A DNA stretch of 4,348 nucleotides. Origin: a virus (lineage: Duplodnaviria > Heunggongvirae > Uroviricota > Caudoviricetes). How positions within the stretch are numbered: position 1 is the first letter of the stretch; every line of letters begins with the position of its first letter. Shown here in pieces: positions 283 through 2,925 of this stretch. Under the pieces are notes generated by a model. It was not told where the DNA came from and made no database searches. It saw only the letters and a list, made by a program, of their open reading frames with translations. The position numbers were made by a program, and so were the translations under genes. Where the stretch lies: IMG/VR virus record IMGVR_UViG_2671180884_000017. The stretch is one strand, 5' to 3'.

Positions 283-1548
283 TTACTGGGCGTAATTCTG
301 TTTCAGTCCACGGATAAACTGAGATGCAGATGAAGCACTTTCATCTCTGGCCTGTTCCCCCCTGGCCTTTTGAATACGGAGAAAATTCGCATACCCGTTC
401 TCCAGCAATTTCTGATTCTGAGGTTCCAGCATTTCAGGCTGACGGGCCGCTACATTTCTGGCAAATGACAGCTTATCAGGATCATCTCCCGCCCAGTTGA
501 TAACCTGTTGCTGAAGTTTTTGTTGCTGAATTTTCTGTTGATGCGGTTGTGAACCAGTCGCAGCATAATATTCATCCACCGCAGCCTGAGCATTACCGCC
601 ATTCTTGATCGCGTCCGCCGCTACGTTGCTGGCCCCCTTCTGAAGCTCTTTCAGAGAAAGTCCCTGCTGCTTCGGCATAAAATAACCATAATTTTTCGAT
701 ATCTCTGCAAATTTGCTGCGATCCCTGACCTGAGCGATAGCCTTATCAACGGGTATCGCCAGCACGGTTTGATCATCAGGGTGCGCACTGCCGTATTCTG
801 TTACAGGTTTATGCGCGGTGGAGCCATCGCTGTATGTGAGATCAAGGCCAATAAGTACGTACCCTTCCTGCTGCGCTGGTACGATACTGCCAATCCTGGC
901 CTCTTTTATCGTTTTTTCCCCGGTTGAATCAGGCATGCCAATACGCTGTTGTAGTTCCGGGGCAAACACGCCGGAAAGCACATCGAGATTTTCCGGGGTA
1001 TTCAGCGAATCGATCGCCATGTCCGGCTTATCACCAAAGATTTTTTGCAGGTTGATCACGGCCTGACCCGCTTTCGCTGCATAGCCTTCGTTTGACATAA
1101 GAATTAATGGATGTCCCTTTGGCAGCTGCCCGAACAGACGCGTTGCAGCCTCCTGATCGCCAGCCTCAATTGCTTTTCCAAGCGCTTCCATTAGTGGCTG
1201 GCTATGGGCAATCATATCGTTATACTCAAGCCGTCGCTGGTTGTATTTCTGCAACTGGAGTCGCTGCTGCTCCATACCCAGTGACGCATTCCGGTAATTC
1301 TGGTTAGCGTTAAACTCCCTTTCCTTCAGTGCATAATTACGGTCGTCAACTTTGGCTCTGTAATCAAAGTTCCGCTGATCAACGTTTTTATTATGTTCAA
1401 ACTGAGACTGCGCAAACTCAAAATCGCGCTCGTTATTTTTCTGTTGCCGGGCAAGCTGTGCTTCACGCAGACCAAGCTCCTTACGACGGGTCATTGCCTG
1501 GTCAACGGTGCTGAATCCGGCAAGTAACCCCTGTGCAAATCCGCTCAT
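283..1548 (-). CDS. Gln-rich, coiled-coil-like protein of 421 aa; hypothetical, possibly a phage internal virion/ejection-type protein
   Basis: Long ORF with a strong SD: AAGGAG then 6 nt then ATG at 1548. The stop TAA of the upstream 83-aa gene lies inside this SD (TAAGGAGTGGTGAATG). Composition is Q/N/K/E/A-rich with QQQKLQQQ and RLQLQKYNQRR stretches. No catalytic motif recognised. Confidence 0.85.
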   Translation of the reverse strand: MSGFAQGLLAGFSTVDQAMTRRKELGLREAQLARQQKNNERDFEFAQSQFEHNKNVDQRNFDYRAKVDDRNYALKEREFNANQNYRNASLGMEQQRLQLQKYNQRRLEYNDMIAHSQPLMEALGKAIEAGDQEAATRLFGQLPKGHPLILMSNEGYAAKAGQAVINLQKIFGDKPDMAIDSLNTPENLDVLSGVFAPELQQRIGMPDSTGEKTIKEARIGSIVPAQQEGYVLIGLDLTYSDGSTAHKPVTEYGSAHPDDQTVLAIPVDKAIAQVRDRSKFAEISKNYGYFMPKQQGLSLKELQKGASNVAADAIKNGGNAQAAVDEYYAATGSQPHQQKIQQQKLQQQVINWAGDDPDKLSFARNVAARQPEMLEPQNQKLLENGYANFLRIQKARGEQARDESASSASQFIRGLKQNYAQ

Positions 1549-1558
1549 TCACCACTCC

Positions 1559-1810
1559 TTAAAACAAAGAACCAGCAATGCCGCCAATTACTGCTCCAGC
1601 AACAGCACCAACAGGACCACCAACGGATGCGCCAATAGCCGCCCCCGTACCAATGCCCGTACCGATATTCTGCTTGTTCTGCGCTTTCTGTTGCGCCGCC
1701 ATCTGTTTGTTCGCAGCCTCAATTTCTTCACGTCGTCTGTCTGCGTCACTTATTCCCTGTAATGCCTCACGCCGCGACTGATTTGCAATATCCAGTAAAC
1801 CGTATCCCAT
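1559..1810 (-). CDS. Small glycine-zipper membrane protein, 83 aa (charged N-terminal helix plus C-terminal GxxxG-repeat hydrophobic segment)
   Basis: SD AGGGGG then CAAT then ATG at 1810, only 9 nt after the TAA of the upstream gene. The C-terminus IGTGIGTGAAIGASVGGPVGAVAGAVIGGIAGSLF is a textbook glycine-zipper transmembrane segment. The N-terminal half is charged and helical-looking (RREEIEAANKQMAAQQKAQNKQN). Confidence 0.75.
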   Translation of the reverse strand: MGYGLLDIANQSRREALQGISDADRRREEIEAANKQMAAQQKAQNKQNIGTGIGTGAAIGASVGGPVGAVAGAVIGGIAGSLF

Positions 1811-1819
1811 ATTGCCCCC

Positions 1820-2266
1820 TTACGCTGCCACCAGTTGGCCGCCAACACTCAGTTTCTGTCTTGCCGGTGCAGAAGCCCCCGTCAGAATATTCATCTGGCG
1901 ATCCTGTTCGGCTTCACGGATACCATTTTTCGCGCCAGCAATTGCCAGGGCATTACGTAACCCCAGCGTATTACTGTCGGGATTATCCGGGCGGTTTACC
2001 CCGTATCTCGCCATCTGGTTATCCTGCGCCATCTGCGCTGTACGGAGACTGGAAGTGGCAAGGCCTCCCACCCGTGCAAGCTGTGCATTCATCAGACTGT
2101 TGTTCTCCCCAAGGTCAGCCAGCCTTGCTACACGGGGTAAATATCTGGTGCGCCAGTCGTCGTATTGCTGGCGGGTCAGCGCTGCGGATGTCTGCCAGTC
2201 CCCCTGAGGGCGGGCTGCTCCGGTATAACCGTATCTTGCAAGTGTTTCGTATTTACCGTACTCCAT
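1820..2266 (-). CDS. Hypothetical protein, 148 aa (ATG start; the ORF-track GTG at 2272 is an alternative)
   Basis: ATG at 2266..2264 is preceded by GGAGA (complement of 2276..2280) with an 8-nt spacer. The upstream gene's TGA stop (2271..2269) sits 2 nt before this ATG, so the SD is embedded in the upstream coding end, a translational-coupling arrangement. Protein is Ala/Arg/Gln-rich with no motif recognised. Confidence 0.75.
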   Translation of the reverse strand: MEYGKYETLARYGYTGAARPQGDWQTSAALTRQQYDDWRTRYLPRVARLADLGENNSLMNAQLARVGGLATSSLRTAQMAQDNQMARYGVNRPDNPDSNTLGLRNALAIAGAKNGIREAEQDRQMNILTGASAPARQKLSVGGQLVAA

Positions 2267-2268
2267 AA

Positions 2269-2925
2269 TCACAGTCTCCAGTTCTGAGCCTGATGCTGAA
2301 TGGCATTAGCGCCGGTGCCAGGTGTTTTAGCACCGCCACTTCCTCCGCTACCGCCAGCCTTATGCATCGCATATGCACCTGCCGCACCCAGACCAGCGCC
2401 AACAAGAGAGGCTCGCCCCTGCTGTTTCGTAAACGCCGCCTGTGCATCCGATTTAGCTTTTGCCAGACTGCTGTCTGCCAGAGAGTTAAAACTCTGTAAC
2501 GCATCCGCCTTCTGACCAGAACCGAGAGCGGCAACATCCTGTAGCCCGGCAACATACTTATCTGCCTGCGATACCTGCCCCCGTGTGGTTGTGTCAATCT
2601 GCCCGGTTACCTGATCACTCTGGTTCGCATTCATTACCGCGTTAAAGCGACCACTGGACGGGTCAACACCGGACTGAGCAAGATTACCCGCCAGCTCCCT
2701 TCGCGCTTCACCAAACTGTTTCTGATAACCAAGATTTGTTGTGCCAGCGATATTGTCGTACTGCTGCTCACTGTTAAGGTCATCGACCTTTTCCATGAAG
2801 TTATCTTCAGCCGGGCGGAGGATATTTTTGTAATCCTGCCACCCTTTCCAGGCCACTTCTTCCTGTGCTATTTGCGCTGCTGTTGGTTTTACTTTGGTAT
2901 CACCACCGCCTTTACTTCCACCCAT
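2269..2925 (-). CDS. Gly/Ala/Ser/Gln-rich low-complexity protein, 218 aa; hypothetical, possibly virion-associated
   Basis: Start moved to the internal ATG at 2925..2923, which has a strong SD (AGGGGG then CCATT then ATG). The ORF-track start at 3000 has no SD and would run through the terminator hairpin at 2950..2965. Protein begins MGGSKGGGDTKVKPT and contains flexible GGSGGSGG and GAGLGAAGAYA segments. Confidence 0.75.
   Translation of the reverse strand: MGGSKGGGDTKVKPTAAQIAQEEVAWKGWQDYKNILRPAEDNFMEKVDDLNSEQQYDNIAGTTNLGYQKQFGEARRELAGNLAQSGVDPSSGRFNAVMNANQSDQVTGQIDTTTRGQVSQADKYVAGLQDVAALGSGQKADALQSFNSLADSSLAKAKSDAQAAFTKQQGRASLVGAGLGAAGAYAMHKAGGSGGSGGAKTPGTGANAIQHQAQNWRL

Follow-up and report, generated by a model that had tools for sequence, protein, structure and literature searches.

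A probable internal-protein cassette of short-tailed Shiga toxin phages as a candidate ejectosome

The functional paradigm for protein ejection by short-tailed phages is T7, in which gp14, gp15 and gp16 provide an outer-membrane pore, a periplasmic tunnel and an inner-membrane complex. In N4/DEV an outer-membrane complex (gp52) and a periplasmic tunnel (gp51) are accompanied by gp50, a virion RNA polymerase of 3,500 amino acids (aa), and in P22 the proteins gp7 (229 aa), gp20 (471 aa) and gp16 (609 aa) are encoded contiguously, from small to medium to large, at the end of the virion module. The same order was found in a stretch of 4,348 nucleotides from the IMG/VR virus record IMGVR_UViG_2671180884_000017 (hereafter the window), which is the late region of a 933W/Sp5/phi24B/P13374-type short-tailed Shiga toxin (Stx) prophage of E. 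coli (Sepvirinae). Shiga toxin genes are disseminated among E. coli by short-tailed Stx phages, whose receptor is the essential protein BamA, and the problem addressed here is how ~60 kb of DNA and a 310-kDa protein cross the envelope from a 22-nm tail. The open reading frames (ORFs) at positions 283–2925, together with the gene for p133 upstream of them and a giant gene downstream, probably constitute the internal-protein (ejectosome) cassette of 933W/phi24B-type Stx phages. Its products p421, p218, p148 and the overlooked p83 are presented as a candidate ejectosome and as targets for structural work and for blocking lysogenic conversion; they would add a distinct lineage to the few ejectosomes studied (T7, P22/Sf6 and N4/DEV). 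The six genes, in the order of the window, are:

1 to 252, minus strand: 5' end of the giant polyvalent protein gene (P13374 ORF78, Sp5 ORF80, phi24B gp47)
283 to 1548, minus strand: p421 (Sp5 ORF79/ECs1241, 933W L0133, phi24B gp48, P13374 ORF77)
1559 to 1810, minus strand: p83 (Sp5 ORF78, phi24B gp49; RefSeq name 'bacteriocin')
1820 to 2266, minus strand: p148 (Sp5 ORF77, phi24B gp50)
2269 to 2925, minus strand: p218 (Sp5 ORF76, 933W L0130, phi24B gp51)
3019 to 3420, minus strand: p133, the first cassette gene (Sp5 ORF75, phi24B gp52)

Positions 1–3800 of the window share 99.3% DNA identity with Stx phage P13374 and 98–99% with many Stx1/Stx2-converting short-tailed phages, and at least 80% of the window is carried by 418 of 5,426 complete E. 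coli genomes. An initial annotation made from the letters alone had called the element unplaceable, yet it belongs to a well-known phage group, the Sepvirinae. The ORFs of 421, 148 and 218 aa which that annotation had described were recovered within 283–2925, but the run also has a fourth member, the 83-aa ORF at 1559–1810, which had been missed and is the most biased of all in composition. The genes of the window are all encoded on the minus strand. P13374 has, in order, terminase, portal, N4-gp56-type capsid, cement, adaptors, fibre, nozzle, needle, lom, hok and ORF73–78, where ORF73 encodes 133 aa, ORF74 218 aa, ORF75 148 aa, ORF76 83 aa ('bacteriocin') and ORF77 421 aa; ORF78 (2,806 aa, LPD5/LPD38) lies directly downstream of ORF77. 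The cassette closes the virion module, with the needle/hok region on one side and the giant LPD protein on the other. The suggestion of a prophage structural-gene region was borne out, as terminase, portal, capsid, adaptors, nozzle, fibres and needle are encoded upstream and the polyvalent protein directly downstream. When the flanks were checked for conjugation or secretion genes, the neighbours were phage virion genes, which leaves the virion reading unrefuted.

Identity to P13374 is 100% for both the 421- and the 218-aa protein; to 933W it is 99.8% and 99.5%, respectively, and the window proteins are 98–100% identical to their phi24B counterparts. The same genes stand in the same order in phi24B (gp52–gp47, confirmed by coordinates), in Sp5 (ORF75–80, matched by protein lengths and by published deletion primers mapping to the gene ends) and in the L0130–L0133 region of 933W. 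The virion mass spectrometry (MS) of phi24B and the deletion phenotypes of Sp5 apply directly to the window. Upstream of position 3800 the window differs from phi24B, Sp5 and 933W: the ORF72–74/lom genes are absent, and the needle gene carries a gpJ-like C-terminal domain, unlike that region of the three phages. The window DNA is already in hundreds of database records and the virion association is already in a 2026 preprint. The literature searched did not contain the reading of gp48, gp50, gp51 and gp49 as an ejectosome, the six-gene cassette and its spread, the homology to Bcep22 gp70 or the motif patterns described below, and it assigned no role to the cassette products except gp47. The finding refines annotation and generates hypotheses, and it is of use for a phage group of medical importance; it introduces no new kind of biology and would not surprise a specialist.

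Conservation of the cassette was evaluated in 80 IMG/VR loci gathered via distant p421 relatives, using as query a 10-sequence subset of a 46-sequence alignment, and the families were scored by single-sequence phmmer. Members of the p83 and p218 families were present in 79 loci each, p148 in 78, p133 in 75 and p421 in 73. The order p133-p218-p148-p83-p421-giant was kept in 59 of the 80; most of the others showed a partial or contig-truncated version of it, and in one p83 and p421 were inverted. In all 69 loci whose downstream sequence exceeds 1.9 kb, a giant homologue followed. The same gene run, with a positional counterpart for each window protein, is found in Aeromonas phage phiARM81mr and Vibrio phage D80. 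Members of the 218-aa family are carried by prophages of Escherichia, Salmonella, Citrobacter, Serratia, Pectobacterium, Dickeya, Yersinia and Aeromonas; clustering of the 421-aa family at 50% leaves 66 representatives, with identities as low as ~22%. The six genes are thus a conserved cassette and not a chance run of biased ORFs; it spans gammaproteobacterial genera, and a p218 homologue is also found in Burkholderia phages. Full-length profile matches were obtained to phrog_601 (p421, 1.6e-213), phrog_594 (p83, 1.9e-45), phrog_596 (p148, 6.3e-84), phrog_611 (p218, 2.9e-120) and phrog_610 (p133, 2.6e-70), all annotated 'unknown function'. A Met-Gly start characterises p218 (70 of 72 members), p83 (50/59), p148 (~50/60) and p421 (38–49/70) against a background of 3.5%, and it is seen in only 5 of 68 members of the p133 family, which is not packaged.

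The strict linkage to the giant gene would also be expected if the small proteins were packaged cargo or chaperones of the polyvalent protein, that is, co-injected effectors or its packaging or folding partners (with anti-defence or host-takeover functions) and not parts of a channel, and polyvalent proteins have been proposed to be injected with DNA for use in genetic conflicts (Iyer et al. 2017). This alternative is considered unlikely. The families are conserved (73–79 of 80 loci) and not diversified in the manner of conflict effectors, and no enzymatic or defence-related domains were detected. The latter agrees with the initial annotation, which had recognised no enzymatic motif: Pfam, NCBIfam and PADLOC gave no enzyme or defence family for these proteins, and PADLOC returned nothing relevant to defence systems among the window proteins.

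The proteomics of particles that the initial annotation had called for exists for phi24B, where gp48, gp51 and gp50 were detected in purified virions (bioRxiv 10.64898/2026.04.10.717836). The batch counts were 179 peptide-spectrum matches (PSMs) for gp48, 82 for gp51 and 83 for gp50, compared with 101 for the portal; per 12 portal subunits this corresponds to ~37 copies of gp48, ~27 of gp51 and ~44–48 of gp50, as portal-normalised estimates with a stated error of 1–3-fold. The 'structure-based abundance' of all three is given as ND, meaning that they are not in the cryo-electron microscopy (cryo-EM) model of capsid and tail, and the resolved densities (portal, two adaptor rings, nozzle, fibres and needle) are other gene products (bioRxiv 10.64898/2026.04.10.717836). 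The preprint lists the three as candidate structural proteins in its supplement and never mentions them in its main text. The giant gp47, with ~23 copies, is abundant in virions yet invisible in the maps and is the sole ejection protein proposed by the authors; the capsid is T=9, as in N4-related phages (bioRxiv 10.64898/2026.04.10.717836).

As in the ejection-protein class, the genes form a small-to-large cluster in the virion module, and the products are present in purified virions (p83 marginally and p133 not at all) and are mainly alpha-helical with glycine-zipper, potentially membrane-interacting segments, as judged from AlphaFold2 (AF2) models and motifs. The MS copy numbers sum to ~10 MDa (3–10 MDa with error), equal to the volume of ~7–21 kb of DNA. 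The packaged DNA measures 57.7 kb in phi24B against 70.2 kb in N4, whose capsid we take to be T=9 as well, and the volumes are compatible with internal storage; partial specific volumes were assumed and the argument is one of order of magnitude only.

In p83, whose G+A content is 36%, a polar helix precedes an uncharged glycine zipper of 37 residues (47–83) that ends in -SLF. The protein scored 25.7 bits against Pfam Gly-zipper_YMGG, below the cut-off of 28.9, which makes this a motif-level and not a family-level assignment; p83 is a candidate membrane-inserting subunit. In phi24B virions gp49 was represented by 6 batch and 13 total PSMs (bioRxiv 10.64898/2026.04.10.717836). When length-normalised by the preprint's own measure this amounts to ~6 copies, more than for gp54 (2.9) and the adaptor gp62 (2.1), both accepted as structural, and gp49 has only four observable tryptic peptides, its hydrophilic ones being MGYGLLDIANQSR and EALQGISDADR. 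We argue that p83 is a genuine minor virion protein, because of its fixed position in 79 of 80 loci and its ~6-copy MS signal.

That the set consists instead of non-structural morons contaminating virion preparations, with p83 a bacteriocin or membrane toxin, is highly improbable. This explanation draws on the RefSeq name 'bacteriocin' with a weak Pfam Bacteriocin_IIc match (E 8.8e-4), on the hok/sok toxin locus and lom nearby and on the classing of gp49 as a contaminant by the phi24B authors, but gp48, gp50 and gp51 are far too abundant for it, the position of p83 is fixed across several gammaproteobacterial genera, and gp49 exceeds accepted structural proteins in copy number. The identification of p83 as a class II bacteriocin was rejected, as Bacteriocin_IIc scored 19.7 bits where 27.1 is the cut-off, and MccV gave E 0.43. 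Inspection of the sequence revealed no double-glycine leader, and no immunity or export gene is annotated nearby, the neighbours being virion genes.

The C-terminus of the p83 family is Phe in 50 of 59 members and -LF in 38 of 59. An aromatic C-terminus after a glycine zipper is common to the p83 family, the P22 gp7 family (19 of 20 sequences end in -SLF, one in -GLF) and Bcep22 gp70 (locus L086, 20538–21533), which ends in -MAF. The possibility that the C-terminal Phe of p83 acts as an outer-membrane protein beta-signal engaging BamA was set aside. The beta-signal is an alternating hydrophobic pattern, which by inspection IAGSLF does not have, and to our knowledge P22, which shares the gp7 ending, does not use BamA.

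Genetic data are available for Sp5. In-frame deletion of ORF79 (p421) or of ORF80 (the giant) abolished plaques and lysogens while DNase-protected DNA remained at wild-type level and heads looked normal (PMC5155283). Deletion of ORF76 (p218) allowed lysogens from concentrated lysate only, i.e. lysogenisation was strongly reduced, and ORF75 (p133), ORF77 (p148) and ORF78 (p83) were dispensable (PMC5155283). Loss of infectivity with packaging retained was therefore seen for p421 and the giant and in part for p218, and not for p148, p83 and p133, and p421 is a virion protein essential for infectivity after DNA packaging. On a laboratory K-12 host p148 and p83 are dispensable, as is often seen with accessory effectors, and this would suit cargo, but p421 is absolutely required on the same defence-poor host and the stoichiometry of tens of copies resembles that of structural ejection proteins.

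The Sp5 authors reached a different conclusion. Particles deleted for ORF79 or ORF80 package DNA but showed no anti-tail-fibre labelling, on account of which the two were called tail-formation genes (PMC5155283). Accordingly p421, and perhaps p218 and p148, might be tail-assembly proteins or plugs of the portal/tail channel, which would build or stabilise the tail on the filled head, for example as a core in the portal-tail lumen, would remain on the particle or drop off, and would form no trans-envelope conduit. The phi24B preprint, whose preparation contained full as well as emptied particles, likewise notes unassigned 'internal tail contents', a possible core that would constrain the orientation of the tail in intact particles only. 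We give this explanation a small share of the probability: the cryo-EM tail model is complete with other gene products, 27–48 copies exceed the capacity of the tail lumen and glycine-zipper membrane motifs are not expected in a plug. Furthermore, the tail-formation call rests on negative immunogold only, and Sp5 tails are rarely visible even in the wild type (PMC5155283). Both the plug and the cargo explanation are compatible with an ejectosome, and some of the proteins could serve as a channel plug until ejection.

The compositional argument of the initial annotation was examined against 21 late-region proteins of P13374. GGSGGSGG is present at residues 191–198 of the 218-aa protein (window 2332–2355) and QQQKLQQQ at residues 341–348 of the 421-aa protein (window 505–528). 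The bias is real but moderate, with G+A+S+Q at 46.8% (218 aa), 37.8% (148 aa) and 35.2% (421 aa), no Cys and an entropy of 3.8–4.0 bits. These three rank 2nd, 4th and 6th for G+A+S+Q among the 21 proteins and hold the top ranks for Q+N, the 83-aa ORF is 1st for G+A+S+Q (49%), and the only other strongly biased late protein is the collagen-like fibre. Comparable values are found in ejection proteins: 49.8% in P22 gp7, 40.3% in P22 gp20, 44.4% in T7 gp14 and ~35% in N4 gp52/gp51. The heuristic therefore has an empirical basis, since proven ejection proteins share the same bias. The GGSGGSGG stretch, although present, is in the non-conserved C-terminal tail of the 218-aa family and does not define it.

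The AF2 model of p421 (pLDDT, the predicted local distance difference test, of 85 from the 46-sequence alignment) is mostly helical. A helix at residues 4–129 (~19 nm if straight, at 1.5 Å per residue) is followed by short helices, by a beta domain at 213–266 that contains the motif best conserved in the family (TYxDGS...KPVT), and by a C-terminal third made up of helices. An N-terminal GxxxGxxxG, at residues 3–11 in p421, occurs in 66 of 70 family members compared with 11 of 1196 background ORFs. The protein is a candidate trans-periplasmic component. Its model has no fold similarity to solved ejection-protein structures. A protein of a representative library (P0137, 442 aa) has a p83-like N-terminal half joined to a p421-like body; its C-terminus looks frameshifted, and the protein, possibly an artefact of assembly, was left aside as evidence of a natural p83::p421 fusion.

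Within p218 residues 1–190 are conserved, with a near-invariant Met-Gly start, and are followed by a variable G/S tail; its C-proximal glycine-rich hydrophobic segment is LVGAGLGAAGAYA. The AF2 model has four long helices at low confidence (pLDDT 47), too poor for a fold search, and resembles N4 gp52, which has been described as an elongated helical protomer lacking a hydrophobic core. The protein also matched phrog_8003 ('virion structural protein') weakly, and p218 is a candidate counterpart of gp14/gp7. The small, basic (pI 9.8), helical virion protein p148 has a weak profile match to a region of Bcep22 gp70 that is also matched by p218 (E 5.6e-6; probability 66%), though direct profile comparison of p218 with p148 as possible paralogues was not significant (probability 0.9%). 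Solved structures were searched by sequence for p421, p218, p148 and p133, from single sequences as well as family profiles, and no meaningful match emerged.

The protein p133 has no compositional bias and heads the cassette in 75 of 80 loci. Although 8 of its tryptic peptides are observable, its counterpart gp52 is not listed in the phi24B proteome; p133 possibly has an assembly or chaperone function. An RLGF(E/V)R motif seen by eye, and an acyl-CoA N-acyltransferase 'moron' in the corresponding slot of Bcep22/JC1 (locus L086, 20114–20545), had raised the idea of a GNAT acyltransferase. The idea found no support: Pfam searches of 19 members gave no match, nor did a PDB profile search or HHalign against Bcep22 gp69.

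Several observations weigh against an ejectosome. The gp49 signal is barely above detection and the phi24B authors dismiss the protein as a contaminant from its 'bacteriocin' annotation (bioRxiv 10.64898/2026.04.10.717836). Both p148 and p83 are dispensable in Sp5 under laboratory conditions, and the missing anti-fibre labelling of the ORF79 and ORF80 mutants is not expected of pure cargo (PMC5155283). Location inside the head is deduced by elimination, from absence from averaged cryo-EM maps. The long helix of p421 is polar and not amphipathic, and no hydrophobic periodicity of 3.0–4.2 residues was found (417 of 500 shuffles reach the observed power), so that an amphipathic coiled coil was rejected and the simple picture of a helical tube is unsupported by the sequence. 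Homology to P22 gp7 is not established, as the alignments are weak and Pfam PF25688 is not matched. The literature searched yielded no data on release at infection or on a trans-envelope channel for these proteins. With these points included, the internal-protein reading of the initial annotation is supported by virion association, absence from the external model, the requirement for p421 after packaging and conservation, and ejection itself we infer.

In the proposed mechanism p218, p148, p83 and p421 would be made late and packaged in the T=9 capsid with ~20 copies of the ~310-kDa polyvalent protein. Release of the central needle at the receptor would let the cassette proteins exit through the tail before the DNA. 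The glycine zippers of the p83 C-terminus, the C-proximal segment of p218 and the p421 N-terminus may then insert into envelope membranes, and p421 could bridge the periplasm by its ~19-nm helix. The giant protein and the genome would pass through the conduit so formed, an extension of the 22-nm tail. The unpackaged p133 probably acts during assembly.

The giant protein encoded directly downstream of p421 is 2,793–2,811 aa long, and the first 84 codons of its gene fall in the window. Public records place the start of the gene either at 252 (MPGHCAG..., P13374, 2,806 aa) or at 213 (MAYSEEQ..., RefSeq chromosomes and Sp5, 2,793 aa), and the design of the Sp5 deletion primers uses the MAY... start (PMC5155283). 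Pfam domains of the P13374 giant are LPD38 (3.6e-48), LPD5 (8.3e-45), LPD1 (1.1e-23) and MuF_C (1.3e-17). By this domain content, with multiple LPD domains amid virion genes, it is assigned to the large polyvalent proteins of the Iyer et al. 2017 class. The phi24B preprint describes the MuF-C domain (P13374 ORF78 residues 1763–1852; locus L001, 523–8943) as a peptidoglycan-degrading metallopeptidase, while Iyer et al. 2017 define MuF-C as PBECR, a predicted RNase domain; Pfam detected no peptidoglycan hydrolase domain in the P13374 giant. The remaining features of the window are:

231 to 250, minus strand: GC-rich hairpin and T7 run, terminator-like by consensus scan, ending directly before the ATG at 213
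2948 to 2967, minus strand: hairpin and T-run, terminator-like by consensus scan, in the 93-nt gap between p133 and p218
3477 to 3617, minus strand: Hok/Gef-family type I toxin gene of 46 aa (NCBIfam HokA 9e-10, below cut-off)
3607 to 3764, minus strand: sok-like RNA (Rfam RF01794, 37 bits against a gathering score of 59, E 6.5e-6)
3819 to 4348, minus strand: the '169-aa' ORF, the 3' end of the needle/tail tip fibre gene, cut by the window edge

The hairpin at 231–250 favours the 213 start of the giant gene, judged from position, and might attenuate transcription into it. Seven terminator-like sites in the window, against 4.3 ± 2.2 in shuffles, are weak evidence. The 93-nt gap is the only sizeable one inside the cassette, the other junctions being 2–10 nt. 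The hok gene is embedded in the virion block between needle and cassette, with a GC-rich hairpin at 3445–3468 after its stop. The best whole-window matches, among them E. coli 2015C-3121 and JNEC-KY174, have a YadA-like adhesin-family gene inserted between hok and the p133 gene (L002, 15530–16723; L090, 5150–6346), an insertion that the window does not have.

The '169-aa beta-rich protein' that the initial annotation named upstream is not a complete protein: no in-frame stop precedes its ATG within the window, and in E. coli JNEC-KY174 DNA of 100% identity forms the 3' end of the gene for a 588-aa 'phage tail tip fiber protein'. The C-terminus of this needle resembles the receptor-binding end of lambda gpJ (Pfam Ig_GpJ_C 0.0021; NCBIfam lambda_TipJ 9.4e-4). 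From 3800 onward the DNA is unmatched in P13374/933W, where ORF70–72 and lom stand, and of 5,426 complete E. coli genomes only 10 have the segment, which in some cases lies within true gpJ genes. A podovirus needle and siphovirus J proteins appear to have exchanged a receptor-binding module here.

With T7 the cassette shares the small-to-large order and helical products; p218 is within the gp14-like size range of 181–240 aa, and p421 is just below the gp15-like range of 431–982 aa, which includes its family median of 467. Profile comparison with T7 gp13–16, P22 gp20/gp16 and N4 gp51/52 was negative, as were profile and sequence searches for known ejection folds, in which T7 gp15 and N4 gp51 were not matched by sequence or fold. 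Neither did p421 resemble the 'leg-fold' protomers of T7 gp15/N4 gp51/DEV gp72. Unlike in T7, no core stack is reported in the phi24B map, and Pfam found no lytic transglycosylase domain in the cassette proteins or the P13374 giant.

P22 is likewise a short-tailed temperate phage of enterobacteria. The sizes of gp7 and gp20 are similar to those of p218 and p421, both systems are G/A/S/Q-rich and Cys-free, and the gp20 N-terminus has a GxxxG-rich segment similar to that of p421. The proteins of both systems are present in tens of copies per virion, in P22 ~12/30/12 (gp7/gp20/gp16). By HHalign gp7 residues 22–72 (the mature N-terminus) align with p218 3–52 at a probability of 37–53%, which is not statistically secure, and the extreme gp7 C-terminus including -SLF aligns with the p83 C-terminus at 85–91% over a low-complexity segment; neither p218 nor p83 matched the gp7 family PF25688 ('DNA transfer protein') at E ≤ 1. 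This suggests, as a lead only, that an N-terminal part like p218 and a C-terminal part like p83 are united in gp7. In the HHalign alignment the p218 start coincides with the mature N-terminus of gp7, from which 20 residues have been removed. A transitive link from gp7 through Bcep22 gp70 to p218 was rejected, as the gp7–gp70 step is not significant. The cassette differs from P22 in having four small or medium proteins in place of two, a ~2,800-aa polyvalent partner in place of the 609-aa gp16 and no counterpart of the 20-residue N-terminal propeptide of gp7.

In Bcep22 gp70 ('virion structural protein') a homologue of p218 was identified (hmmsearch 2e-13, HHalign 96%). Like p83 it ends in a glycine zipper (...GAGIMAF), and it is encoded two genes upstream of the DarB-like giant gp75, which carries LPD38, with gp74 in the p421 slot. 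The N-terminal FAQGL..G...G motif of gp74 is common with p421, but the profile similarity is not significant. The portal, capsid and head-closure proteins of Bcep22/JC1 (Lessievirus) are related to those of 933W, and virion MS of JC1 found gp64, gp67, gp68 and gp69, of which gp64, gp68 and gp69 are by gene position the counterparts of Bcep22 gp70, gp74 and gp75. These phages differ in having only two medium-sized proteins before the giant and morons (acyltransferase, PAPS reductase) interleaved. Lytic transglycosylase, methylase and helicase domains, which the Stx giant lacks, occur in JC1 gp69, the giant most closely related to Bcep22 gp75.

With N4/DEV the cassette has in common small helical membrane-active proteins encoded beside, and packaged with, a giant that passes through the tail, and the Stx-phage major capsid protein is in the N4-gp56 family. 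Sequence similarity between N4 gp51/gp52 and the cassette families was absent (HHalign <1%), and the N4 giant is an RNA polymerase at ~4 copies, in contrast to the LPD5/LPD1/MuF_C/LPD38 protein at ~23 copies. A more speculative scheme, which we regard as doubtful, is that the cassette is an independently evolved protein-and-DNA ejectosome dedicated to giant polyvalent proteins, in which a gp7-type outer-membrane protein is split into p218 (possibly with p148) for the N-terminal part and p83 for the C-terminal glycine zipper, p421 is a periplasmic component with a fold unrelated to T7 gp15/N4 gp51 and the Met-Gly start of the four packaged families is a shared packaging or maturation signal perhaps handled by p133. 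In function, the arrangement proposed here would be the same as that of P22 gp7/gp20/gp16 and N4 gp52/gp51/gp50.

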